A model generated the notes under the pieces. The model saw only the letters and a program-made list of their open reading frames with translations. It searched no databases and had not been told where the DNA came from. A program made the position numbers and the translations under genes. From contig NW_024055427.1 of assembly GCF_902713615.1 (NCBI RefSeq), positions 124,001-188,000 on the forward strand: DNA of 64,000 nt, in the 5' to 3' direction. Shown here in pieces: positions 17,190 to 33,459 of the stretch. Numbering within the stretch: the first letter of the stretch is position 1; the number at the start of each line of letters is the position of its first letter. This DNA is from Scyliorhinus canicula. Taxonomy: Eukaryota.

Positions 17190-17695
17190 ATGAAGCTGAG
17201 CTTCACTTTAGTGATTATCTCCCTGAATTTCTTACTCTTCTCTCCGTGTGAGTGTAACCACTATATCTGGCAGGAATATGTCACACATCAGACATGTCAT
17301 GTTATAGGGACGTACAGTTTCCTTTATTGTATATATTGTTATGTCATGTTGTAGTTGATTGTGCTATATCATATTCTCGCCGTCTGTGTGATATTAAATT
17401 ATTCATGTTATTTTACATCTCAGATGCTGCTGGAAGTGAAGAGGTATCACAGTCTCCAGAGTCAATGGTGGTTCCCGAGGGAGACATTTCATCCTTGGCC
17501 TGTTCCACCACAGTAGCAGGAGTGATCCTACAATGGTACAGACAATACCCCGATGGAACCATGCAGCACCTGGCGATCGGCACCAGCGATCAGGGCAGGA
17601 TCACAGCTCGGTTCAGTTCAGCAGAGAAACACAGCTCTCTGAATGTTAGTGACGTTCGAGTGACAGACACCGCCACCTATCTCTGTGCAGTGAGG
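17190..17695 (+). CDS. TCR alpha-type V gene: leader 17190-17247, intron 17248-17423, V exon 17424-17695; open frame
   Basis: MKLSFTLVIISLNFLLFSP|YAAGSEEVSQSP...LAC...LQWYRQ...DTATYLCAVR. GTGAGT donor and CAG acceptor; CRE-like ttacgtca motifs at about 16889-16916. Confidence 0.92.
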
Positions 17696-17734
17696 CACAG
17701 TGAACTGAAAACCATTCAGCGCCGTACAAAAACC
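17696..17734 (+). other. Consensus 23-RSS
   Basis: CACAGTG, 23 nt, ACAAAAACC. Confidence 0.95.
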
Positions 17735-17858
17735 TGCCGGGTCATTCTGAAAGTGTGTAGCCTGTGCAGTTATCCGAGAGCAGGCATTTTAGTAACACTT
17801 CCATGGATATGCTGCAATGAGTGAGGTACGTTCGTGACTGGCGTTTACTCTTTCATAT

Positions 17859-19914: not shown

Positions 19915-20880
19915 TGTTGCACGTTTTGCTATGGGCGCAGAACGCGTTTATTGGGGTGTATTAACTTGCCTATGTTAAAGGCCGTGTGCTTAACACCACT
20001 AGGCTCTGTCTTATGTATTTTTCAGCTCAGGAGTCGCCAGTTGCCATATAGACAACTCACATATATTCCAAGGTCAGGTTCAAAGTAATAAAACGATACA
20101 CCGATTAGTAAGTTCCAAACGATCAATATTTATTATACAATTATAATAAATACGCATGCACACACTAAGGGACTAAGCTATGACTAAACTAAGCAAACAG
20201 AATACTTAACTACACAGGAACAGGCAAGGTCAGGGAGCGAGGCCTTCGTCCCGGTCTTGGGCTGCAACCTTCAGAAAGCGTGCTGGTCACTGGGGGTTTA
20301 GCGGGCTTGTTTCGCGTAGCGAGCGTCGTATTGGCACTTACGGTTCGGCGGCTGGTGCTCAACGGCTGGAGTCAGGATACGAGTTGGAGGTCTTGGTCAA
20401 AGCCGGAGCACGAAACAACAGACAGGACCATGTGTGGGGGTCTATATTTATAGGGGTCCCCAATGTCCTTCCCTCTTCCTGGGCGGGCTTTACCTTTAGG
20501 TATCGATTGGATCGCTTCCAATCGATATCTTTTGAATTCCTCCAATGTAAGGGTCTTTCTCGACGGTGGGGGCGGTTTCTATAGTGGATACTTCTGGTGC
20601 CGCGCTGTCTGGACATCCACTTAAAGTATCTTATTCAAACCCAAATGTTGCCATTGTGTGTGCCTAGATCTGGACTGCCTCATTAGTATGTAGAACGTTC
20701 TGCCATTATCACCTTTGGTTGGAGATCTTCCACCTGGCCAGAAACTGGTTTTGCTGCTTGCAAAATGCTAATGAGTGTTTGCAGGCTGTTTGCCTTGGCT
20801 AAACTGTTTTTCCCTACAGTCTTAGCGATTCTCCATTTTGTTTGGTTCAGTGTCCATTTTAGGTGGCTACAGTGGCTACA
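19915..20880 (-). repeat. 3' LTR
   Basis: Identical to 31071-32036 except two substitutions found by eye (20564/31720 and 20604/31760). Minus-strand TATA (tataaata) near 20445 and AATAAA near 20130. Confidence 0.95.
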
Positions 20881-21251
20881 TTCCCTCCTTGTGATCCTCA
20901 CAATCAAAATATTGTGAAGGATCACCTATGTACGTTGCCTTGAGTGCATCTGGGTTGCCTTCTTTGTGTTCCCTGACCTCGGCAAGCTCCTGAGCGTCTA
21001 CTCTGTCCTTAAACTATGGGAAGAAATTTTTTTTAACTGACATCTCTACTTGGCGCTATGTCAAAGGGGACATGCATTACCACAAACGGGAACCTCTACC
21101 TATCACAATTATCCTTATCTTAACTTAAACATTTCATTACAGACTAAACCTCATCCATTCATACCACATCACATAACATTTCATGACTCGGCAGTCGAGT
21201 TCAGGACAATATAATACATGGGTATAATTTTTTTATTCATTACACAGTGCT

Positions 21252-21596
21252 TTATTCATCATGGGGCAAAGGGGATTGATGAAATCGAAAAATAGGAGAT
21301 CGAACTCCATAGACGGTTGAGGGGCAGGAACGGGAGGCTCTCCTCTTCCACTTCCTCAACCTGAGGGTCTGTACAAGTATGGCGAGGATCGCAATCACTA
21401 GCAGTGATTCAATCACGTATGACATGGAGTACCATGTCATAAATTTTGTGCACCAGGTCTGAACCTCACTGATCAGAGCTGAGCACGGGGGAGTTGCTGT
21501 AAGTGAAACATTTACGATGGGGGTTGTGGGGGAAACGTGTCTTGCTTCCACACATACGAACATAACATTTAAAAGCAATAAGTGGGCTTCCATCAT
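21252..21596 (-). CDS. 114-aa predicted type-I membrane protein in the env position of the LTR element
   Basis: Hydrophobic N-terminus (MMEAHLLLLNVMFVCVEA), NVS sequon, TM-like YVIESLLVIAILAILVQTL, basic cluster RLRKWKRR. Function unknown. Confidence 0.6.
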   Translation of the reverse strand: MMEAHLLLLNVMFVCVEARHVSPTTPIVNVSLTATPPCSALISEVQTWCTKFMTWYSMSYVIESLLVIAILAILVQTLRLRKWKRRASRSCPSTVYGVRSPIFRFHQSPLPHDE

Positions 21597-21772
21597 CTTC
21601 TCTTTGTTTTCCTTCTTTTCTTCCTCCTGTATGGCCGATCCTTGCTGTGGTCCCTGTTTCGTCCTTCGAAAGCTATGGGATCAAGCACAGTATCTGTCAA
21701 TACAGCTTAATATCCGTACTTGTTAGTGTATCTGTCTTTCAATTCCAATTGACCCATTAAAAATGACTGGCC

Positions 21773-23953
21773 TACAACGCTCCCATGGCGAGTGTACAGA
21801 CCAACAATACCAACTCCCAATACTTCCAGCTGCACAGGGGCACCAGACAAGGATGCCCACTGTCCCCGCTGCTGTTCGCACTAGCAATCGAACCGCTAGC
21901 AATCGCGCTCAGGGCAGCAAAAAATTGGAGGGGGATCCGAAGGGGAGGTAGAGAGCACAGAGTCTCACTCTATGCGGATGATCTGCTCCTCTATATCTCG
22001 GACCCACAAAGCAGCATGGACGGAATCATCACGCTCCTGAAAGAGTTTGGAGCCTTCTCGGGCTACAAACTCAACATGAGCAAAAGTGAGATCTTCCCAT
22101 TACACCCGCAAGGGGGGGGGGGGGCAGCACTAAAGGGGCTGCCGTTCAAACAAGCCCGACATAAATTCCGCTACCTGGGGATCCAAATAGCCCATGACTG
22201 GAAAGGGATCCACAAATGGAACCTCACCAGCCTGACGGAGGAAGTTAAAAAGGACCTGCAAAGATGGAACACACTCCCGCTCTCCCTCGCGGGGAGAGTT
22301 CAGACGATCAAAATGAACGTACTGCCCAGGTTCCTCTTCCTGTTTAGATCCATTCCGATCTACATCCCCAAGGCCTTTTTCAAAGCGCTGGACAAACTCA
22401 TCATGGCGTTCATATGGGGGGGGGGTAAAAATGCTAGGATCCCAAAGAAGGTCTTACAAAAAACAAAAACCAGGGGAGGGTTAGCCCTCCCGAATCTACA
22501 ACTCTACCACTGGGCAGCAACAGCCGAGCGAGTAAGGGGATGGATCCAGGAGCCAGAAGCTGAGTGGGTGCGTGCGGAGGAGGCCTCCTGCATGGGAACC
22601 TCCCTCCGGGCCCTCGCCACGGCAGCACTCCCATCCCCACCCAAAAAACACTCCAGCAGCCCAGTGGTGACAGCCACCCTCCAATCCTGGAACCAACTGC
22701 GGCAGCAACTTGGCCTGACCAAAATGTCGAACAGGGCTCCCATCTGCAACAACCATAGGTTCAAACCAGCACTGACCGACGCCACCTTCAAAAGGTGGAG
22801 GCAGGACGGGGGGACACTGACAGTCAGGGACCTATACACGGACGACAGGATCGCAACACTGGACGAACTGACAGAGAAATTTCAGCTAGCTGGGGGGAAC
22901 GAGCTACGGTACCTGCAGCTCAAAAACTTCCTACGAAAAGAGACAAGGACGTACCCACAACCGCCACGACAGACACTACTGGAAGACCTACTGGACGCAA
23001 GTATCCTAGAGAAAGGGAACTGTAGTGACATGTATGACCGACTGGTAGATAGGGACGACACCGTACTGGACGCAACAAGGAGGAAATGGGAGGACGACCT
23101 GGGGATGGAGATCGGGTGGGGACTCTGGAGCGAAGCACTGCATAGGGTCAACTCCACCTCCACGTGCGCAAGGCTCAGCCTGACGCAACTAAAAGTGGTA
23201 CATAGAGCCCACTTAACAAGAACCCGTATGAGTAGGTTCTTCCCGGAGGTGGAAGACAGATGTGAACGGTGCCAAAGAGGCCCGGCCAACCACGCCCACA
23301 TGTTCTGGTCCTGCCCCAGACTCGTGGAGTACTGGACAGCCTTCTTCGAGGTAATGTCCAAAGTGGTGGGAGTGAGGGTGGAGCCATGCCCGATAGTGGC
23401 GGTCTTCGGGGTTTCAGAACAGCCAGATCTATTCCTGGGGAGGAGGGCGGATGCCCTTGCCTTTGCCTCCCTGATCGCCCGCCGTAGAATCCTGTTTGGC
23501 TGGCGGTCAGCAGCACCGCCCAGAGCTGCGGACTGGCTGTCCGACCTCTCGGAATCTCTCCAAATGGAGAAAATCAAATTTGCCATCCGAGGGTCGGACG
23601 ACGGCTTCCACAGAACGTGGGAGCCATTCATGCAACTGTTCCGGGACCTCTTTGTGGCCAATGTACAAGAGGAAGAATAGTCGGGGGAAGGTAGCGGGGG
23701 GGGGGGGGGGGGGGGGGGGGGCTACAGGTTCGTTACGGGGGTTCGATGGCTAGCTAAGGCCCAAAACCAAGCTAAATAAACATGTTGAGGGGGGCAGGGG
23801 GCGCAGTTACTACTACGAAGATGCTTACCTGTAAATATGTATGTTAATTTTTGCGTGTTTGTTTTTGTTTGTTTTTTTTTTCTCTCTCCTAACAATTTGT
23901 AATTTGTTCAATATAAAATACGACAACTGAATAAAAACATTTATAAAAAAAAA
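21773..23953 (+). mobile_element. 5'-truncated L1-clade LINE nested in the LTR element; open ORF2 fragment 21785..23680
   Basis: RGTRQGCPLSPLLF, LYADD, C-terminal CERC...HMFWSC, poly(A) tail. TSD aaaaatgactggcc (21759-21772 and 23954-23967) at a TT/AAAA site. Confidence 0.92.
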
Positions 23954-24768
23954 AAAAATGACTGGCCAAGTCACACCCTGTGACTCCCCTCATTTTTTTT
24001 TCAAAACGAATTTAATGAACACAATACACCTAACAACTCTCCTCCTGCGAGCCGTCTCGCAGGCTTTGCTCATTTACCATCCGAATGTTCCTGGATGTAA
24101 ATAGCATGTGGGATGGCGGCCTAAGGGCTGCCTAACGAAAAATGAAAACAAATTGGAAATGAAAGGTCGAATGGGTTGCGTATGGGCCGCTACGGGTACG
24201 ATTTGAATGGGATCCCCAGGTAGGGCGTGCTGTGCCATACCCGAGCTTGGCTGACCAAAGTGGGTTCTCAGACAGGGCGGGTCCTCAGTGCCGTTTGTCC
24301 ACTGCCTGAGTAACCTGGAGTAAACGGGCAAGAATGTGTTTAGCGTGGATTTGCAGCCTCTATTCGCCGAATAGAGGGGCACCTAAAAACAATGGAGGAG
24401 CCAAGATGCTCCTTCATCTGAAAACAGGGAACAAGTCGTGAACCGTGTCGGTTCACCAGAGGATACAACTGAAGTTCTCAGAAGTTTCGGCAGACAAACT
24501 AACTTGCGTGCGAGGTGGTCGCACTCCTTACAACTGAAAAGATCTCCAATCAAACGGTTGGTTTGCGAACCAAAGTTCTCAAAGGTATTTGCGGACAAAC
24601 TAACGGGTGTGTGAGGTGGTCACAATCTTTTCAGCTGAAAAGATCTGTAATCAATCTCTTAACATATTAACAAACAAACATAAACTGACAAACAAACATA
24701 CGTGCAGGTTCCATCAGAAAGGACATCGCTTCCCTCAAGCGGTTCCTATTTTACATCATCTGAACACC

Positions 24769-26442
24769 TCACTTTTCCTCTGTCTCTGTGAACAGGGTCA
24801 CAAAGGGGTTGCCGTGTCGGGATTCAGACACCGTGTCGTCCTGCTCTCCCGGATCCCACACCCTTGTGTGGATCAGGCATGATATTTTTGAATTGTGTGA
24901 CCGGGGGTCACTTTCGTCATTGCGGACAAGTCGGTACGAATTGTCCCTGTGCCAGAGTGTTGGGTCCAAAAGTGAATAGGTATTGTCGGGGTCGTCGGGG
25001 TCGGGTGGTGGGTCTGGGTTTTTAATGTAAGTGACTTCCATGGGGTCACTGTAGTCGGGGTCATAGTCGCTGCTATGTGGGCTGTAGTGTGGTGTGCTGT
25101 GGCTGTCCTCAGAGTCAGTGTCTGTATTGCTGTCTCTGCCGCGGCAGCTTGTGGGCGTTTCGGGGCGTGGTCTGTCATGGTCAGTGGGCGGAGTCGTGGG
25201 CGAGTCCGATGAAGAACTGGTCTGTGAGGGGGATGGTGGAAACGTGTCTCTAGTGGGTGGGGTGAGGTGTTCTGCTGCGTCTAGCAAGACATGGTGTGCA
25301 TGGTTGGCCTGTGTTCCATATGCCTTTAACTGGTTGATATGGAACCACGCGGTCTTACCATTAGGATATTTTATCCTATAAACTGAGGGGCTAATTTTAT
25401 CCGAAATTGAGTATGGGCCAGAATATTTTGGTGCCAAAAAACTGCTGGGGTTGTATACAGATAACATTACCTGTTGCCCAACCTGGAATTCTGTGGGGTG
25501 AACGGTCTTGTTAAAACAAGCTGTGCGTTGTTTACGGCGTTTCCCTAGCTGAACTGCGGCTGCAATCTGTGCAGACCTCACAGTCTCAACCAAGTCTTTA
25601 ACCGTCTTTTCGTGTGTGAGGGCCGTCACTTCGGGGCTAGTCATGTCCAGTCCTAAAAGGAATTCTGTACCTTTCATAGGGCGTCCGGTCATGAGTGTGT
25701 GTGGTGTGTATCCTGTGGAAGTGGAAACTGTATTTCTGATGAACATTAATGCAAATGGGAGCACTGAATCCCATGTGGAGTTGTTCTCTTGAACCATTTT
25801 CCTAAGCGTGGATTTTAGGGTCCGATTCATGCGCTCTACAATCCCGCTGGACTGTGGGTGATACGCAATATGAAAATTTTGTTTTATTCCAAATATTGTC
25901 AGGACGTTCTTCATGACCCGTCCTGTGAAGTGAGATCCCTGGTCCGAATCGATGCTTCGGGGTAAACCCCATCTCGTGAAGATGTGGTGTGTCAGGATCT
26001 TTGCAGCTGTCTTAGCTGTATTCGTTCTAGAGGGGAATGCCTCTACCCATTTGGTAAAGGTATCGATGACCACCAGAACGTATTTATAGCCATTCCTACA
26101 AGGGGGCAATGGGCCTATAAAGTCGATCTGGAGGTTTGTCCAGGGGCCATTAACTGGTCGAGTATGCCGAAGTTGTGCCTTTTTAGAATACCTCTCCGGG
26201 TTATTCTGGGCGCAAATAAGGCAATTCTCGATGTAGTGACCTACATCTGTCCTTAGGTTAGGCCACCAACAGAGCTGCCTGAGGTGCCTCGTGGTTGCGT
26301 CGGTTCCTTGTTGCCCGTGTCCATCATGGAACAAAGCAATCATTTCATTCCTGTCCTGCTGTGGAACCACATAAAGCTGATCCTTTATGATCACACCCTC
26401 ATGTGTGGTCAGTGCGTGTCTGAATTTGTCATACTGTGGCAC
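24769..26442 (-). CDS. pol: Integrase portion of pol (separated from RT-RNase H by a frameshift near 26450)
   Basis: HDGHG...CLIC zinc motif, IDFIGPLP, DTFTKW, SDQGSHFT, HPQSSGIVERMNRTLK, GPY motif. Confidence 0.92.
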   Translation of the reverse strand: MPQYDKFRHALTTHEGVIIKDQLYVVPQQDRNEMIALFHDGHGQQGTDATTRHLRQLCWWPNLRTDVGHYIENCLICAQNNPERYSKKAQLRHTRPVNGPWTNLQIDFIGPLPPCRNGYKYVLVVIDTFTKWVEAFPSRTNTAKTAAKILTHHIFTRWGLPRSIDSDQGSHFTGRVMKNVLTIFGIKQNFHIAYHPQSSGIVERMNRTLKSTLRKMVQENNSTWDSVLPFALMFIRNTVSTSTGYTPHTLMTGRPMKGTEFLLGLDMTSPEVTALTHEKTVKDLVETVRSAQIAAAVQLGKRRKQRTACFNKTVHPTEFQVGQQVMLSVYNPSSFLAPKYSGPYSISDKISPSVYRIKYPNGKTAWFHINQLKAYGTQANHAHHVLLDAAEHLTPPTRDTFPPSPSQTSSSSDSPTTPPTDHDRPRPETPTSCRGRDSNTDTDSEDSHSTPHYSPHSSDYDPDYSDPMEVTYIKNPDPPPDPDDPDNTYSLLDPTLWHRDNSYRLVRNDESDPRSHNSKISCLIHTRVWDPGEQDDTVSESRHGNPFVTLFTETEEK

Positions 26443-29003
26443 AAAGTTGCCTTGAAAATCTCCCTGAGATCCTCATCTTGCTTTTGTGCCTCTACTAAAT
26501 CTTTAATACTGGTCTGTGAGACTTGGACTGCGCTCACAGGGGCGCTAGCTGGTGCGCTAGCTGGGGGTGTCCATAAGTGTCCTCGCCTGGAACCTGCCTT
26601 AGCCAGTGCGTCGGCTTTTACATTCCCAGGGGGGGATGACCTATGGTGGCTTCTTACTTTTATGATGCCGAAGGTCCTGTCCTTCGCTTTCTCCAAAATG
26701 TGTTTGAGTAAAGGGGCTGATGGAAGGGGTTTCCCATCTGCGGAGACAAAACCTCGTGTCCTCCACAGGGGCAGAAAATCGGTTAAACTATTGCAGACAT
26801 ATAAACTGTCCGAATATATGTCCGCTGGGCTGGGGAAAGAATCGGGGTGGTCCACTATATAAGCTATGGCCGCGAGCTCTGCTGCCTGCGCGCCTAAGTG
26901 TCCGGGTAGTTTTAAAGCTATCTCTTCGAGAGCGCGCCCCTGCGCGTCCTCTACATAGATGCCGCATCCTGTGATACGCTCACCTTCTAAAACTGTGGAT
27001 GAACCGTCTACGTATATCCTCAGTGGTCCACACGTGTCTGTGGGTTGGGGGCTTTGTTTTGGGTTCCCTATCTTCCTGGGGGGTGTCTTTGCTATAAAGG
27101 GTCCTGTGTTATGTAAGGGGGCTACAATTTCACATTCATGGGGCTGTCCTGGGTATTGGAGGTTGTCAGCTAAAAATGTGTGTGTGCGGGTCCGTTTGAC
27201 TGTAATGTCCCGTCCTTGTAAAAGTAGTGTCCACCTAGCTGCCCTAATCTGGCTAACTGAACCGTCCTTCAGTCGACCGTCTAGGAGTAACTGTGTGGGG
27301 GTGTGCTCGGTCAAAATGGTGGTGGGGTTGAGTCCGGTAATGTACGAAAAATATTGCACTGCCCAGAAGACAGCAAGGAGGTGCCTCTCGCAGGCTGAAA
27401 ATCCTTGTTCAACTGGGTCTAACAGTCGGGAGGCATAAGCCACTGGTCTTAGCTGCTCGTGCCGTTCCTGAAGCAACACGGCCGAGAGGGTCAGATCTGT
27501 GCTCGCTACCTCTATTGCATATGGGGAAAGTTGGTCTGGGACTTGTAGCGCGGGTGCTGCGCTAAGGGCTTTCTTTAACTCCTCCACAGCCTCTGTATGC
27601 TGCGGAAGCCATTCCCAGGGGGCTCCTTTCTTAAGGAGGTCTGAGAGTGGGGCGGCTTTTGTCGCGAATCCGTCGATGTGGTTCCGACAATAACCAACCA
27701 GTTCTAAAAACGACCGGAGGGCTGAAACATTCTGGGGAAGGGGCAATTTGACAATCGAATCAATTCTTTTGAATTCGATCTCGCGTTTGCCGTGCGTGAT
27801 GATTGTACCCAAATACATCACTTTATTTTCCAAAATCTGGGCCTTTCTTGGGTTAACTTTACATCCAATCTCGGTTAAAAGTTCCAGGAGTTCGGCCAGA
27901 AGCGTAATGTGCTCTGCCTTTGTGTCTGTCTGCAGTAGTAGGTCGTCTACATACTGTACCAGACATTCGGGGCGGGAAAATTTTTCTAAGCCATTCGCCA
28001 ACTGTCGGTGGAAAATGGAGGGGGAATTGTGGAATCCTTGTGGAAGGCATGTCCACGTATACTGTTGTGTTTTAAAAGTGAAGGCAAATTTGTACTGGCA
28101 CGCCTTTGCCAATGGGATTGACCAGAAGCCATTGCTAATGTCCAAAACCGTGAAATATTTGGAGTTGAGTCCCTGCTTGAGCATGGTCTCGGGACTTGTT
28201 GCTACCGTGGGGGCTACTGCTGGGGTTACTTTATTGAGTTCCCGATAATCAATGGTCAGACGCCATGATCCGTCGGGCTTTCTCACTGGCCAAATAGGAG
28301 CATTATTGGTCGAGGCTACTGTTCTAAGCACACCTTGCTCCAATAAGCTACCTATCACCTTTTCTATTTCTACCTCTGCTTCTAGGGGAAATCTATATTG
28401 TTTTTGTGGTCTGGGGTCAGGTCCGGTAACGTGAATTTGTCCAGCCATTCTGCCGCAGTCATGCCGGTGACTGGCAAATGCTGTCCTGTGTTTATTCAGT
28501 ACTGCCTTAACTTGTCTGTCCGTGTTTAGTGTAGTCAAGTCAAATGAGTATTCTCCTACTGCACTAATCCTGTTAGCGTACTCTCCTACTGTGAGAGTAG
28601 CGGGTGCTCTGTCCGATCTTGCCATTCGCCAGACACATTGGTTCACTGGGTCGAACGACAGGCTATGGGCATTCATAAAATCTGTCCCTAGGATGTGTTC
28701 TGCTGTCCGGGGAAGATTTACTAAAACAACGGGGTGTTTGGTGGAAATGTTCCCTAGCTGGATTGCTACGGGTGCTGTAATATGTCCCTGCTGCGAGTGT
28801 CCGGTGAACCCGCTAAGTGTGATGGTGGAGGTGGTCGGCCACGTGTCTGTGTGTGCCGTGGTGGTGGAGTTAATTGTGGTGCGGGAGCCTCCTGTGTCCC
28901 AAAGTAACTCTATGGGCTTCCCTCTTAATTTTGCCGTGACTACTGGTCTTCCTGATGGATCCCATAGTGTGTCACAGACCCAAGTGGGGGAGCCCGAACA
29001 CCG
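26409..29003 (-). CDS. pol: Protease-RT-tether-RNase H portion of pol, in frame with gag across a UGA
   Basis: LWDTGGS at about 28896; PQKQY, DYRELNK, LDISNGFW, LPQGFHNSP, YVDD (27942-27953). Degenerate RNH at about 27280-27525. Intact RNH with YVDGS / AELAA / YSDS / KADALA at about 26600-27020. Confidence 0.93.
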   Translation of the reverse strand, partial: RCSGSPTWVCDTLWDPSGRPVVTAKLRGKPIELLWDTGGSRTTINSTTTAHTDTWPTTSTITLSGFTGHSQQGHITAPVAIQLGNISTKHPVVLVNLPRTAEHILGTDFMNAHSLSFDPVNQCVWRMARSDRAPATLTVGEYANRISAVGEYSFDLTTLNTDRQVKAVLNKHRTAFASHRHDCGRMAGQIHVTGPDPRPQKQYRFPLEAEVEIEKVIGSLLEQGVLRTVASTNNAPIWPVRKPDGSWRLTIDYRELNKVTPAVAPTVATSPETMLKQGLNSKYFTVLDISNGFWSIPLAKACQYKFAFTFKTQQYTWTCLPQGFHNSPSIFHRQLANGLEKFSRPECLVQYVDDLLLQTDTKAEHITLLAELLELLTEIGCKVNPRKAQILENKVMYLGTIITHGKREIEFKRIDSIVKLPLPQNVSALRSFLELVGYCRNHIDGFATKAAPLSDLLKKGAPWEWLPQHTEAVEELKKALSAAPALQVPDQLSPYAIEVASTDLTLSAVLLQERHEQLRPVAYASRLLDPVEQGFSACERHLLAVFWAVQYFSYITGLNPTTILTEHTPTQLLLDGRLKDGSVSQIRAARWTLLLQGRDITVKRTRTHTFLADNLQYPGQPHECEIVAPLHNTGPFIAKTPPRKIGNPKQSPQPTDTCGPLRIYVDGSSTVLEGERITGCGIYVEDAQGRALEEIALKLPGHLGAQAAELAAIAYIVDHPDSFPSPADIYSDSLYVCNSLTDFLPLWRTRGFVSADGKPLPSAPLLKHILEKAKDRTFGIIKVRSHHRSSPPGNVKADALAKAGSRRGHLWTPPASAPASAPVSAVQVSQTSIKDLVEAQKQDEDLREIFKATLCHSMTNSDTH

Positions 29004-30752
29004 TCAGTCCATTCCGTCCACATTGGTCTGTCCTGACTGTATCCCTATACTATGGATCGGTTTTGTTTTATTCCTGTTCAGAGTGCCTGTCTGCTGGCCT
29101 CTCTGTGATCTCTGGGGTCCATTACATTCTTTTGCCCAATGCCCTAACTGTCCACAGTTGTAGCATTCCTGCGACTTCTGTGGAGGACTGCTCTTTCCTT
29201 CATTCACCCATGCGGGTTTTTGGTGCTCTCTCACTGCCTGTATGTCTGCTGCAGCCTGAGCTTCTTCTGGGGATTGAACTCTACTCTTGCCCTGAACTGA
29301 TTGCTCCCAAGTGCGGGACAATCTTTTCAGGACCCACTTCTCATTATGGGCTTCCTCTGAGGGGTCATAGCTGTTGCAAACGCTCTGTCCTGCTTCTGTT
29401 GCATGTGAAATTATGGTGCGCGTCCATTTAACCATGTTTTCACGGTTCAAATGGGCTCTATTTAAATCGCCAAATACTGCATTAAAATGGATCCACAGCC
29501 TTCCGGCGAATGCTGTGGGGTGCTCGGATTTCTTCTGCCGGCACTTATTAAGTCCTTCTACGGGGTCACCTCGATTATACCCTATGGCATCTAAAATGGA
29601 GGTGTGCATTTCCTCTAGGGTGCCTCCGCCAACATTCTGTGGGTCGGGGAGGGCTGCTACAACCGATTGGTCCAAACTCAGAACTGTGAGTTTGACCTGC
29701 TCTCTCTCGTCCAGGCCGTACATGGTAGCCTGCTGTTTTACCTTAGCGAAAAACTGGTGGGGGTCTGCGGTGGGGAGAAACGGAGTGATCTTCTCACACG
29801 CGTCCCTTAGTTGGGTTACAGTTAAGGGGGTGGTGTAAGTTATATCGGGTGCGCCGTCTATGGTCGCTTTTCTCTGGGTGGTGACTGGATTCATTGGAAT
29901 GGTGAGGAGCTGATCTGTAGGGGGTTGGGGTGCTTGCCTTTTCTGCTGCGCTGCTGGCGCACATGTTCCCTGAACATAACGCTGCGCTGTCTCACTTAAC
30001 TCTTTCCAGTCTGGGGCATTCTCCTCATCTAACTGGGTTCCAAAGGTGCTTTGAAACCCATTTTGCACCGAAAGCAGCGATTGCAGCTCTGCAATCTGTT
30101 TCCTGCATTTCGCTTGGTCTACTGTACTTTGCCTTTGTTCGGTGGTTGCAGCATGGAGTGCTCTCAAAGCTGCTTTAAGGTCAGAGCATTGCCTCTGCAA
30201 AGCTTCTACCTGCTTCTCTGATTCTTCTCTTATCAGGACGGCACGTTGCACGTCCTGATAGGCCTTTTCGTACTGGGTCAGGGAACTGCTGAGATGGGCT
30301 AGACAAGACTGATGTGCCCTCTTGGCATCATCCACCTCTCTACCTTTCTCTGCCAACTTCCCTCTAAGTTCCATGTTTTCCTTTTCGATGTCCCTGACAT
30401 CCACTTTACTCATTCTATTCCTTTCTTCTAATTCTGCCCGGAGCGTCTGAACGACCTCCTCTGTGCCTCGCAATTGTGCCAAACAGGACACAATCGCCAT
30501 CGGCTTACGTGCTTTACTCATGTTTTTCTTATGAATTTGAGAGAGGTTCTCCCACCAAGTATGTCCTATACTTCCGGGACCTGTCTCCTCATTCAAACAA
30601 AACTCTTTCCAAAGGGGCCATCCCTTTCCTTGCAGATACTTGCGGAGTTCCAGCTCCCACATGGGACACTGACCTACTCGGCTACTGCTGCTGGTCGCTG
30701 CGACCACAAACCGTTCTGGGTTCATGAGGCGTTCCATTGCCTGCATGGCCAT
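29004..30752 (-). CDS. gag: Gag-like polyprotein, 582 aa
   Basis: Long heptad-rich coiled-coil-like segment, capsid-like central region, single CCHC knuckle CYNCGQLGHWAKEC; located directly 3' of the 5' LTR. Confidence 0.88.
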   Translation of the reverse strand: MAMQAMERLMNPERFVVAATSSSSRVGQCPMWELELRKYLQGKGWPLWKEFCLNEETGPGSIGHTWWENLSQIHKKNMSKARKPMAIVSCLAQLRGTEEVVQTLRAELEERNRMSKVDVRDIEKENMELRGKLAEKGREVDDAKRAHQSCLAHLSSSLTQYEKAYQDVQRAVLIREESEKQVEALQRQCSDLKAALRALHAATTEQRQSTVDQAKCRKQIAELQSLLSVQNGFQSTFGTQLDEENAPDWKELSETAQRYVQGTCAPAAQQKRQAPQPPTDQLLTIPMNPVTTQRKATIDGAPDITYTTPLTVTQLRDACEKITPFLPTADPHQFFAKVKQQATMYGLDEREQVKLTVLSLDQSVVAALPDPQNVGGGTLEEMHTSILDAIGYNRGDPVEGLNKCRQKKSEHPTAFAGRLWIHFNAVFGDLNRAHLNRENMVKWTRTIISHATEAGQSVCNSYDPSEEAHNEKWVLKRLSRTWEQSVQGKSRVQSPEEAQAAADIQAVREHQKPAWVNEGKSSPPQKSQECYNCGQLGHWAKECNGPQRSQRGQQTGTLNRNKTKPIHSIGIQSGQTNVDGMD

Positions 30753-31070
30753 TTTCTCTGACTCACTTTTAAATTTAGGAACAGGGGGTGTTGAGGTTAT
30801 GTCTCACGAAACGGGTAAGGCTTACGCTATGTTCCGTTCACAAAACTACCGAAAGTTTGTCGCAACAAAAATGCTTTCAGGTTTTCCTTACAACCCTGTT
30901 AGTACGCATGCACTAAACACACTTCCGAATTACGCTTATTTCTTTGAACACCTTGAATATTTGTGATTTCTTTCCGTTTTCTTTACCAGATTTCCAATTC
31001 AAATTTCAGGGTCCTCGACGGAGTGGGGGTACCACTTGTAACCGTGTCCCGTCAGGATGTCGCCTCTAAA

Positions 31071-32036
31071 TGTTGCACGTTTTGCTATGGGCGCAGAACG
31101 CGTTTATTGGGGTGTATTAACTTGCCTATGTTAAAGGCCGTGTGCTTAACACCACTAGGCTCTGTCTTATGTATTTTTCAGCTCAGGAGTCGCCAGTTGC
31201 CATATAGACAACTCACATATATTCCAAGGTCAGGTTCAAAGTAATAAAACGATACACCGATTAGTAAGTTCCAAACGATCAATATTTATTATACAATTAT
31301 AATAAATACGCATGCACACACTAAGGGACTAAGCTATGACTAAACTAAGCAAACAGAATACTTAACTACACAGGAACAGGCAAGGTCAGGGAGCGAGGCC
31401 TTCGTCCCGGTCTTGGGCTGCAACCTTCAGAAAGCGTGCTGGTCACTGGGGGTTTAGCGGGCTTGTTTCGCGTAGCGAGCGTCGTATTGGCACTTACGGT
31501 TCGGCGGCTGGTGCTCAACGGCTGGAGTCAGGATACGAGTTGGAGGTCTTGGTCAAAGCCGGAGCACGAAACAACAGACAGGACCATGTGTGGGGGTCTA
31601 TATTTATAGGGGTCCCCAATGTCCTTCCCTCTTCCTGGGCGGGCTTTACCTTTAGGTATCGATTGGATCGCTTCCAATCGATATCTTTTGAATTCCTCCA
31701 ATGTAAGGGTCTTTCTCGATGGTGGGGGCGGTTTCTATAGTGGATACTTCTGGTGCCGCTCTGTCTGGACATCCACTTAAAGTATCTTATTCAAACCCAA
31801 ATGTTGCCATTGTGTGTGCCTAGATCTGGACTGCCTCATTAGTATGTAGAACGTTCTGCCATTATCACCTTTGGTTGGAGATCTTCCACCTGGCCAGAAA
31901 CTGGTTTTGCTGCTTGCAAAATGCTAATGAGTGTTTGCAGGCTGTTTGCCTTGGCTAAACTGTTTTTCCCTACAGTCTTAGCGATTCTCCATTTTGTTTG
32001 GTTCAGTGTCCATTTTAGGTGGCTACAGTGGCTACA
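31071..32036 (-). repeat. 5' LTR
   Basis: Near-identical to 19915-20880; followed by TSD actt. Confidence 0.95.
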
Positions 32037-32519: not shown

Positions 32520-33024
32520 ATGAGGAACCATCTCGCTTCGCTGCTCGTCATTATCTCACTTCTCAGTCAGTATTTCCTTCCCAGTAACACTCCATTCTCT
32601 TCCTGAATGCCGTAACCCTGATTTTATTGTTGGTAAAATGACAGAGATTATTTTGCTGATGATCGTATTGCTGAATGCGATGCTAACTCTGATTGTCATT
32701 ATTGTTGTTACTTCTGTTAGAATGGAGCCACCAGGACACCGTGGAACAAAAGGAACCTGAAATAACGGTTACAGAGGAAAGGAATGCCACAATAACCTGC
32801 ACCTTGAAAACAGGTGCTGCTAACCCTTATGTGTACTGGTACAGTCAGCAGCCCGGGAAAGCTCCAATGTACATGTTTCTTCTTATTGGACAGACGGTGC
32901 AACGGAACACCGACCTCAATAATCGGTTTTCTTCTGCGTTTGATAAAAAAGACAAGACTACCGAGCTAACGATCAGTAACACAATGATCTCAGACAGCGC
33001 CTTGTATTTCTGTGCCATGAAGCC
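32520..33024 (+). CDS. TCR alpha/delta-type V gene: leader 32520-32565, intron 32566-32720, V exon 32721-33024; open frame
   Basis: MRNHLASLLVIISLL|KWSHQDTVEQ...ITC...VYWYSQQP...DSALYFCAMKP. Confidence 0.9.
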
Positions 33025-33064
33025 CACACTGCTACAGAGATACAGTGGACCCCGTACAAAAACC
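33025..33064 (+). other. RSS: CACACTG, 24-nt spacer, ACAAAAACC
   Basis: Heptamer 33025-33031; perfect nonamer 33056-33064. Confidence 0.85.
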
Positions 33065-33459
33065 CCACACTGGCAGTTCCAGCTGCTGCTCAGCAGGGCG
33101 CGCGTCATCATGGGCAGTTCAGGTTACACAGTGAGTGACAAACATTGTAACAAAACATCTCAAAAATAACAAGAGGTGAGGTCCACTTGCACAGTTAAAC
33201 CAATTTACGATTGCAACTTGCATTCATAACAGATGTAAGATTGACGAATCGATCTGTTATTCCTTAAATCCTGCTTCTTGTTCATATCTTGGTGTACAGA
33301 CTCACTCACTCAGTAAACTATCAGGTCTCATTGGACAATAGCAAATGCAACAATTTAAATTAATGTTGAGCTTTTCACATCATTACATGTCCAAAGCAGT
33401 TTCAGAGGAGCATTTAGGTCAAATGATCAAAAACCTGCTCAAAGAGTTCGGTTATTTGG

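Follow-up and report, generated by a model that had tools for sequence, protein, structure and literature searches.

What stands in the place of env in an endogenous retrovirus (ERV) of the catshark Scyliorhinus canicula is the question that this locus raises. Within the window, i.e. the whole stretch of 64,000 nucleotides that was analysed, a provirus lies on the minus strand, and a preliminary description of the DNA had reported an intact open reading frame (ORF) of 114 aa between its integrase (IN) and its 3′ LTR. This small ORF is present as described, at 21252..21596 on the minus strand, and begins with ATG; the plus strand is closed across 21252–21596 and contains no ORF.

A retrovirus-type element without env

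The provirus is bounded by two minus-strand LTRs of 966 nt, the 5′ LTR at 31071..32036 (TATA at 31608; donor-like site ACC/GTAAGT at 31498/31497) and the 3′ LTR at 19915..20880 (AATAAA at 20134). Since these differ at only 2 positions and the element is flanked by a 4-nt target-site duplication, AAGT, the insertion appears to be young. The primer-binding-site region (31046..31070, minus strand) lies 5 nt after the LTR, and the primer is probably tRNA-Arg(UCU), judging partly by a relaxed ARAGORN call; the polypurine tract (PPT; 20881–20892, minus strand) lies directly upstream of the 3′ LTR. On the same strand follow gag (29004..30803), with one CCHC knuckle, no N-terminal MG and an in-frame TGA before pol; protease, RT (YVDD), tether and second RNase H (26409..29003) in the retroviral dual-RNase-H layout; and IN (24769..26472), whose frame differs in this copy from that of RNase H and which has a long Pro/Ser/Asp-rich tail. 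That tail, of about 180 aa (window 24769–25300), ends in an NPF motif and is open in most copies.

In U5, at 31186–31200 (and 20030–20044), a stretch resembling an older LTR end is followed by a primer-site-like TGGCGACTCC, which suggests that the LTR formerly included its own leader. In LTR-flanking copies at three other loci (L149, L151 and L152, near position 1500) the primer site continues for up to about 45 nt, resembles the 3′ half of a tRNA and ends in CCA, as though copying had continued farther into the primer tRNA; the pattern points to tRNA-Arg(UCU). V-set immunoglobulin segments that look like T-cell-receptor V genes, with leader, V exon and heptamer-23-nonamer, form a cluster around the provirus (window 17294–17824 and 32520–33070); the ATG of a V leader lies on the other strand, about 480 nt from the end of the 5′ LTR. 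This location is probably coincidental, because the genome holds thousands of candidate copies.

Among reference polymerases, foamy virus (E 1e-69) and MLV (2e-67) gave much stronger matches to Pol than did Ty3 (3e-36), the domain order is PR-RT-tether-RNase H-IN, and RT is closest to retroviruses; judged by these comparisons the element is of Retroviridae type. Its RT relatives are ERVs of frog, coelacanth, turtle and bird (up to 58%), and in a tree of 53 rows, chosen from at least 120 matches and holding no SnRV, ERV-L, foamy or loki row, it falls inside a 23-row clade (98/97), apart from gamma- and epsilon-like rows. The host range of these relatives fits the SnRV-like clade and clade Huo as described in PMC12193657 and PMC6001957, respectively. 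We infer an SnRV-like / clade Huo (class III) affinity. The element shares with such ERVs the in-frame gag-stop-pol arrangement and, with XtERV-S among them, a donor ahead of the primer-binding site, but differs in having neither env nor a dUTPase match. Lokiretroviruses (PMC7947760) likewise have dual RNase H and homologues annotated NYNRIN-like, and they carry a paramyxovirus-F-like env and reside mostly in ray-finned fish; here there was no PF00523 match, a weak negative, and the nearest RT rows were not from ray-finned fish. ERV-Spuma.0-Sca is also a catshark ERV of about 9 kb, but, over the first 400 nt and the layout compared (PMC10699275), it has another LTR start and another organization (gag of 2259 nt, pol of 2946 nt and an 'env' of 1326 nt).

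The preliminary description had considered the small ORF the only convincing frame between IN and the 3′ LTR. The small ORF is real, but a 631-aa ORF lies there too (21785–23680, plus strand): it is the ORF2 part of a 5′-truncated L1-like LINE with poly(A) (about 21773–23953, plus strand), inserted between IN and the small ORF and flanked by a 14-nt target-site duplication (21759–21772 and 23954–23967, plus strand). Of the 30 closest loci only this copy has the LINE; in the remaining 29 the two sides are joined directly. Among 20 long loci, three had another flank, one had no gag/pol upstream and two had internal deletions; in the 14 retained, which hold both IN and the small ORF, env is absent after IN (14/14) and no frame exceeds 191 aa after the IN core. 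Env was also absent from all 20 copies picked by their pol, where the longest sense frame, 182 aa, is the IN tail. This very abundant catshark ERV family is without env, and the small ORF is its third gene, in a fixed place after IN, separated from it by 0.7–0.9 kb of non-coding DNA. That the small ORF is a deletion chimera peculiar to this copy was ruled out by the other loci with the same env-less layout; a full-env copy, of which it might have been the deleted form, occurred neither among the 14 long nor among the 20 pol-picked copies.

The genome does carry env-bearing ERVs, with 78 TLV_coat matches. In a related family, 5 of 8 loci (L153–L160) have gamma-type env frames immediately behind pol, and none of the eight contains the small ORF; a 3-bit profile match downstream of env in L160 is interrupted by a stop and was dropped. 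The env of L153–L160 is of gamma type, but its immunosuppressive stretch lacks the usual LQNR.

The non-coding stretch after IN in the present copy (23968..24768, minus strand) contains an 87-nt direct repeat (24467–24654) and blocks conserved across subfamilies; this non-coding block, seen also at L091 7660–8080, is 61–84% identical across subfamilies. It has the highest RNA depth of the element and is a candidate export, packaging or splicing element.

A predicted small membrane protein kept under selection

The predicted protein displays the following features: (i) a predicted signal peptide at residues 1–18, called from motif and hydropathy, in agreement with the signal-like N-terminus of the preliminary description, the N-terminus being hydrophobic and ending in V-E-A/R at residues 16–19; (ii) a Ser/Thr/Pro-rich stalk (45–58% of these residues in five copies measured) with an N-x-S sequon, NVS, at residues 29–31; (iii) an aromatic juxtamembrane helix, W48-C-x-x-F-x-x-W55-Y, with a hydrophobic moment of 0.36–0.58 over 11 residues; (iv) a transmembrane segment (TM) at about residues 58–78 containing Glu63, where the top 19-residue hydropathy windows, 57–75 (2.32) and 60–78 (2.28), bear out the 19-aa helix first described; (v) a polybasic stretch at residues 79–89, of which the membrane-proximal RLRKWKRR reported earlier is residues 79–86; and (vi) a tail motif, S-P-I-F-x-F-H-Q, in the C-terminal part. 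If the signal is cleaved, the mature ectodomain comprises ~40 residues. An AlphaFold model (mean pLDDT 68, pTM 0.33) has helices at 2–20 and 39–90, the latter confident over about 51–80 and the remainder loose.

At least 150 copies share 93–100% identity and have no stops (150 scored among 8178 candidates), and subfamilies extend down to about 42% identity, with three homologous gene models as queries yielding 60 further loci at about 42–65%. Among 90 loci, 69 are complete, with an ATG-to-stop frame of 105–120 aa over the whole span, and 21 with stops, frameshifts or a failed motif and length filter were left out. Grouped by query, the complete copies number 30 (A), 14 (B), 11 (C) and 14 (D). 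All 69 have the W-C pair (W-C-x-x-F being the core), the acidic TM residue (Glu) and a polybasic patch of at least five K/R per 12 residues; by motif scan the N-x-S/T sequon occurs in 68 and a signal-peptidase-like small-x-Ala motif in 66, whereas an MG start (myristoylation, MGxxxS/T) occurs in none. The sequon and two ectodomain Cys of the preliminary description are both found here, as NVS and as Cys38 and Cys49, but only Cys49 is conserved throughout (69/69): a second ectodomain Cys is present in 30/30 of the closest copies and 0/39 of the three diverged groups, and a late-TM Cys in 38/39 diverged and 0/30 closest copies. Residues shared by 70% or more of the copies of each group are A18, N29, S31, W48, C49, F52, W55 and Y56 in the N-terminal half; S57, S59–V61, E63, L65, L66 and V75–T77 in the TM; and R79, K82, W83, R85–A87, Y96, S100–F103 and F105–Q107 on the C-terminal side.

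Nei–Gojobori dN/dS between groups is 0.20–0.34, one pair having a mean of 0.20 and a bootstrap median of 0.17, with every bootstrap upper bound at most 0.58; the copies, which might have been evolving neutrally, instead bear the mark of selection. Constraint is strongest in the juxtamembrane/TM core and the tail: dN/dS is 0.06–0.13 for core plus TM (pairs with unsaturated dS only), 0.07–0.38 for the tail where dS is measurable, and 0.17–1.13 for signal peptide plus stalk. Differences are about twice as frequent at third as at second codon positions (0.35–0.57 vs 0.18–0.28), and the frame is preserved, with its start and its length, while the length of the upstream leader varies freely. Because picking by protein similarity lowers dN, a pol-picked set was added, namely 20 of the 32 loci matched by a coelacanth Pol query, a set biased to young copies. 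The small ORF lies 1.4–1.56 kb past the pol match in all 20 and is open across the profile in 19, and dN/dS for the 18 that passed the ATG-to-stop filter is 0.20 (0.13–0.29). When the 892-nt 3′ region was shuffled 3000 times in dinucleotide blocks, an ATG ORF of at least 114 aa arose in 22 shuffles, and in none did an ORF combine a signal-like with a TM-like stretch. These substitution patterns indicate that the small ORF is under purifying selection, and that it is a real gene for a predicted small membrane protein and not a damaged copy. The element evidently needs what this gene does, since it was kept under selection while synonymous sites neared saturation. Distances of the small ORF are weakly congruent with those of IN (rho 0.28, p 0.10) and gag (rho 0.47, p 0.004), each over 36 non-independent pairs, and the congruence of gag with IN (0.21) is also weak, so that these distances do not demonstrate co-descent. 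The family has been active across several subfamilies, with LTR pairs 93–99.8% alike.

Transcripts, splice signals and searches for relatives

Ahead of the small ORF (21597..21700, minus strand) there is a splice-acceptor-like AG at 21674–21673, and the 76 nt from there to the ATG are a non-coding leader rich in purines. The purine-rich tract noted earlier is present (84% purine over the 45 nt upstream of the ATG), but it follows this acceptor-like site and is not the PPT. An acceptor-like motif occurs 46–90 nt ahead of the ATG in 49 of the 49 copies examined, and the genome match of two RefSeq models (P0001, P0002) starts exactly at the AG. On the donor side, GTAAGT occurs about 200 nt ahead of the LTR AATAAA in 8 of 8 LTRs examined; an env donor ahead of the primer-binding site is also described for XtERV-S and foamy viruses (PMC8278194).

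In about a third of each of three oligo-dT RNA runs, the small ORF was covered at a depth of 32–69 on the strand expected for sense RNA and of at most 3.2 on the opposite strand, the reads stemming from many copies, most less than 95% alike; the LINE showed the reverse strand pattern. The small ORF region is transcribed on the sense strand. As for spliced subgenomic RNA, no donor–acceptor joint appeared among the 11 joints listed from four runs, and depth did not step up at the acceptor, being higher upstream (49–223). The TAA stop forms part of an AATAAA in this copy, as the preliminary description stated, and AATAAA is found at the stop in 52 of 69 copies. The poly(A)-tailed ends listed (108 reads, one run) map in the LTR, so that the AATAAA at the stop is at most a putative poly(A) signal.

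Eight Scyliorhinus RefSeq models (P0001–P0004, P0183–P0186) consist of host exons with the small ORF at the end, and several S. torazame models have the same order; P0004 links the TM and tail of the ERV to Ig domains from a HEPACAM2-like protein. Such gene models may reflect exon trapping by the ERV acceptor.

A word-index protein search with the single ORF gave 0 matches, and HMMER against 1.84 billion representatives gave four, all Scyliorhinus gene models; in the searches run, relatives were confined to models of S. canicula and S. torazame. Viral and metagenome contigs scanned with the ORF alignment, IN or related Pol gave nothing. Profile and structure searches returned no Env, FAST or solved-structure match: the PDB profile search had 0 matches at E ≤ 10, Foldseek with the AlphaFold model none under E 3.6, and the best ESM Atlas scores (0.88–0.89) are leads only. 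A likeness of the TM to CD3-zeta/FcR-gamma had no support from the PDB search. We found no description of the small ORF in the mainly open literature searched, and it is apparently new to the literature.

Possible roles of the small protein

We tentatively favour, as somewhat short of probable, a role as an Env-replacing factor for cell-to-cell transfer that would work like sORF2 of insect elements, because of its position, the splice layout, selection on the juxtamembrane and polybasic parts, a Gag without a myristoylation motif, and the sORF2 precedent. A spliced RNA would run from the donor in the LTR R region to the acceptor 76 nt ahead of the ATG; cleavage of the signal peptide would leave about 40 residues outside, giving a small glycosylated type-I membrane protein; the polybasic stretch may serve surface delivery, and Cys49 and Glu63 may support a dimer or oligomer. 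The conserved tail might then bind capsid or a host factor, Gag having no myristoylation motif, while the aromatic juxtamembrane helix might bring membranes into apposition, so that capsids would be carried to the cell surface and helped into a touching cell in Env's stead.

The closest precedent, likened by layout only, is sORF2 of MDG1-group LTR retrotransposons (Drosophila 412, Stalker2). According to bioRxiv 10.1101/2025.03.14.642691, sORF2 of env-less MDG1-group elements was found with capsids in protrusions into the oocyte, and its fusion activity was not reproduced in cell culture. Both are small single-TM ORFs of env-less LTR elements, on the gag-pol strand, N-out/C-in (predicted here), with a juxtamembrane polybasic patch and an amphipathic ectodomain segment, and in some moth elements sORF2 lies downstream of pol, as here. 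The catshark ORF differs in its host element, which is retrovirus-type (dual RNase H), from a vertebrate and not Metaviridae, and in having a predicted cleavable signal peptide, a predicted N-glycan and its own acceptor-like site and no MGxxxS/T. The reovirus FAST layout invoked by the preliminary description holds as an analogy only: size (95–198 aa for p10, p14, p15 and p22), short ectodomain, single TM and polybasic motif agree, and p14, at 125 aa with a 36-residue ectodomain, comes close, but FAST proteins have a reverse signal anchor without signal peptide or glycosylation (PMC3952855). With a predicted signal peptide and sequon, an acidic TM residue and no Pfam, PDB or fold match, the small ORF does not appear to be a FAST member. 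As to acylation, which in FAST proteins and sORF2 may be N-myristoylation at MGxxxS/T or palmitoylation of a Cys, the signs are mixed: the MG start is absent, and the late-TM Cys is confined to diverged copies.

The env slot with its env-like splice layout, the size and ~40-residue ectodomain near those of p14, and the env found in the same slot of the related family that lacks the small ORF argue for transfer. Against it stand the near-universal signal-peptidase-like motif and sequon and the missing MG, foreign to FAST proteins, the lack of a spliced joint or depth step in the RNA, and the glycosylated Ser/Thr/Pro-rich stalk, which might be expected to hold membranes apart. Since env-less ERVs are known to multiply intracellularly, a transfer factor is not required to account for the copy number. 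Somewhat unlikely, if still a serious contender, is a host-modulating accessory protein with a layout like that of Vpu, p12 or M2, in which the TM Glu would bind a host membrane protein and the tail re-route it, blunting restriction or immune detection during intracellular copying. The invariant TM Glu, a tail as constrained as the core (dN/dS 0.07–0.19 in three of four measurable pairs) and a predicted signal peptide and glycan suited to an ordinary surface protein agree with such a role, as do language-model look-alikes, a lead only, which are generic small TM proteins, influenza M2 among them (scores 0.84–0.85), and the small 3′ accessory ORFs of complex fish retroviruses such as SnRV (PMC12193657). 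However, no ITAM/ITIM-like motif was seen in the small ORF, the PDB profile search was empty, and an accessory gene outliving env predicts a relative with both env and small ORF, of which none was found.

An env remnant, as the preliminary description also proposed, is doubtful. An old Env might have lost its fusion machinery, so that the signal peptide is now joined to what was the membrane-proximal region with the TM and tail; such a stump would serve as a scaffold for budding or for targeting Gag, perhaps with Env provided by other ERVs; position and splice signals are env-like, co-resident Envs also have aromatic juxtamembrane segments ahead of the TM, and env-bearing ERVs are at hand in the genome. 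Yet 12 env loci gave no profile match (best E 1.6), 24 env frames against nine 3′ regions gave at best E 0.017, antisense, and the seven matches in a profile search of longer proteins are all Scyliorhinus host-exon chimeric models, none Env; the gap after IN is non-coding, whereas env follows close behind pol in the related family. At 114 aa, and with no TLV_coat or co-resident Env match, the small ORF is indeed too small for a class-I Env and far from a gamma-type SU/TM precursor with furin site, heptad repeat, ISD and CX6CC. Quite improbable is a captured TMEM156-like host exon for TM plus tail, used as a decoy of the host protein: although 20 of 24 aligned copies match Pfam TMEM156 (PF15106) at E ≤ 1 (best 0.00087, residues 47–95), scores stay below the 27-bit cut-off (14.4 in this copy; 20–23, at most 22.9, genome-wide), all six genome matches are copies of the small ORF and none a host gene, and single-TM proteins often yield such matches. 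That the frame is untranslated, and conserved for RNA-level reasons or by chance, is hardly credible; it would suit the lack of spliced reads in four RNA runs and of any protein evidence, but the codon-position pattern, the frame kept beside a freely changing leader, and the shuffles speak against it.

Carried further, the transfer reading would mean that a vertebrate retrovirus lineage exchanged Env for a new class of minimal cell–cell fusogen with a signal peptide, and that it reaches the shark germline from somatic cells with no need of an enveloped infectious particle. The FAST/sORF2 strategy would then have arisen independently for a third time, and for the first time within a retrovirus-type element; we regard this as a speculative and unlikely extension. 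The protein itself is small and easy to test. Should it prove to be a host modulator, it would point at an unknown shark restriction or immune target; should it move capsids between cells, it would be a natural variant that breaks the FAST rules and would extend the sORF2 route from insects to vertebrate retroviruses.
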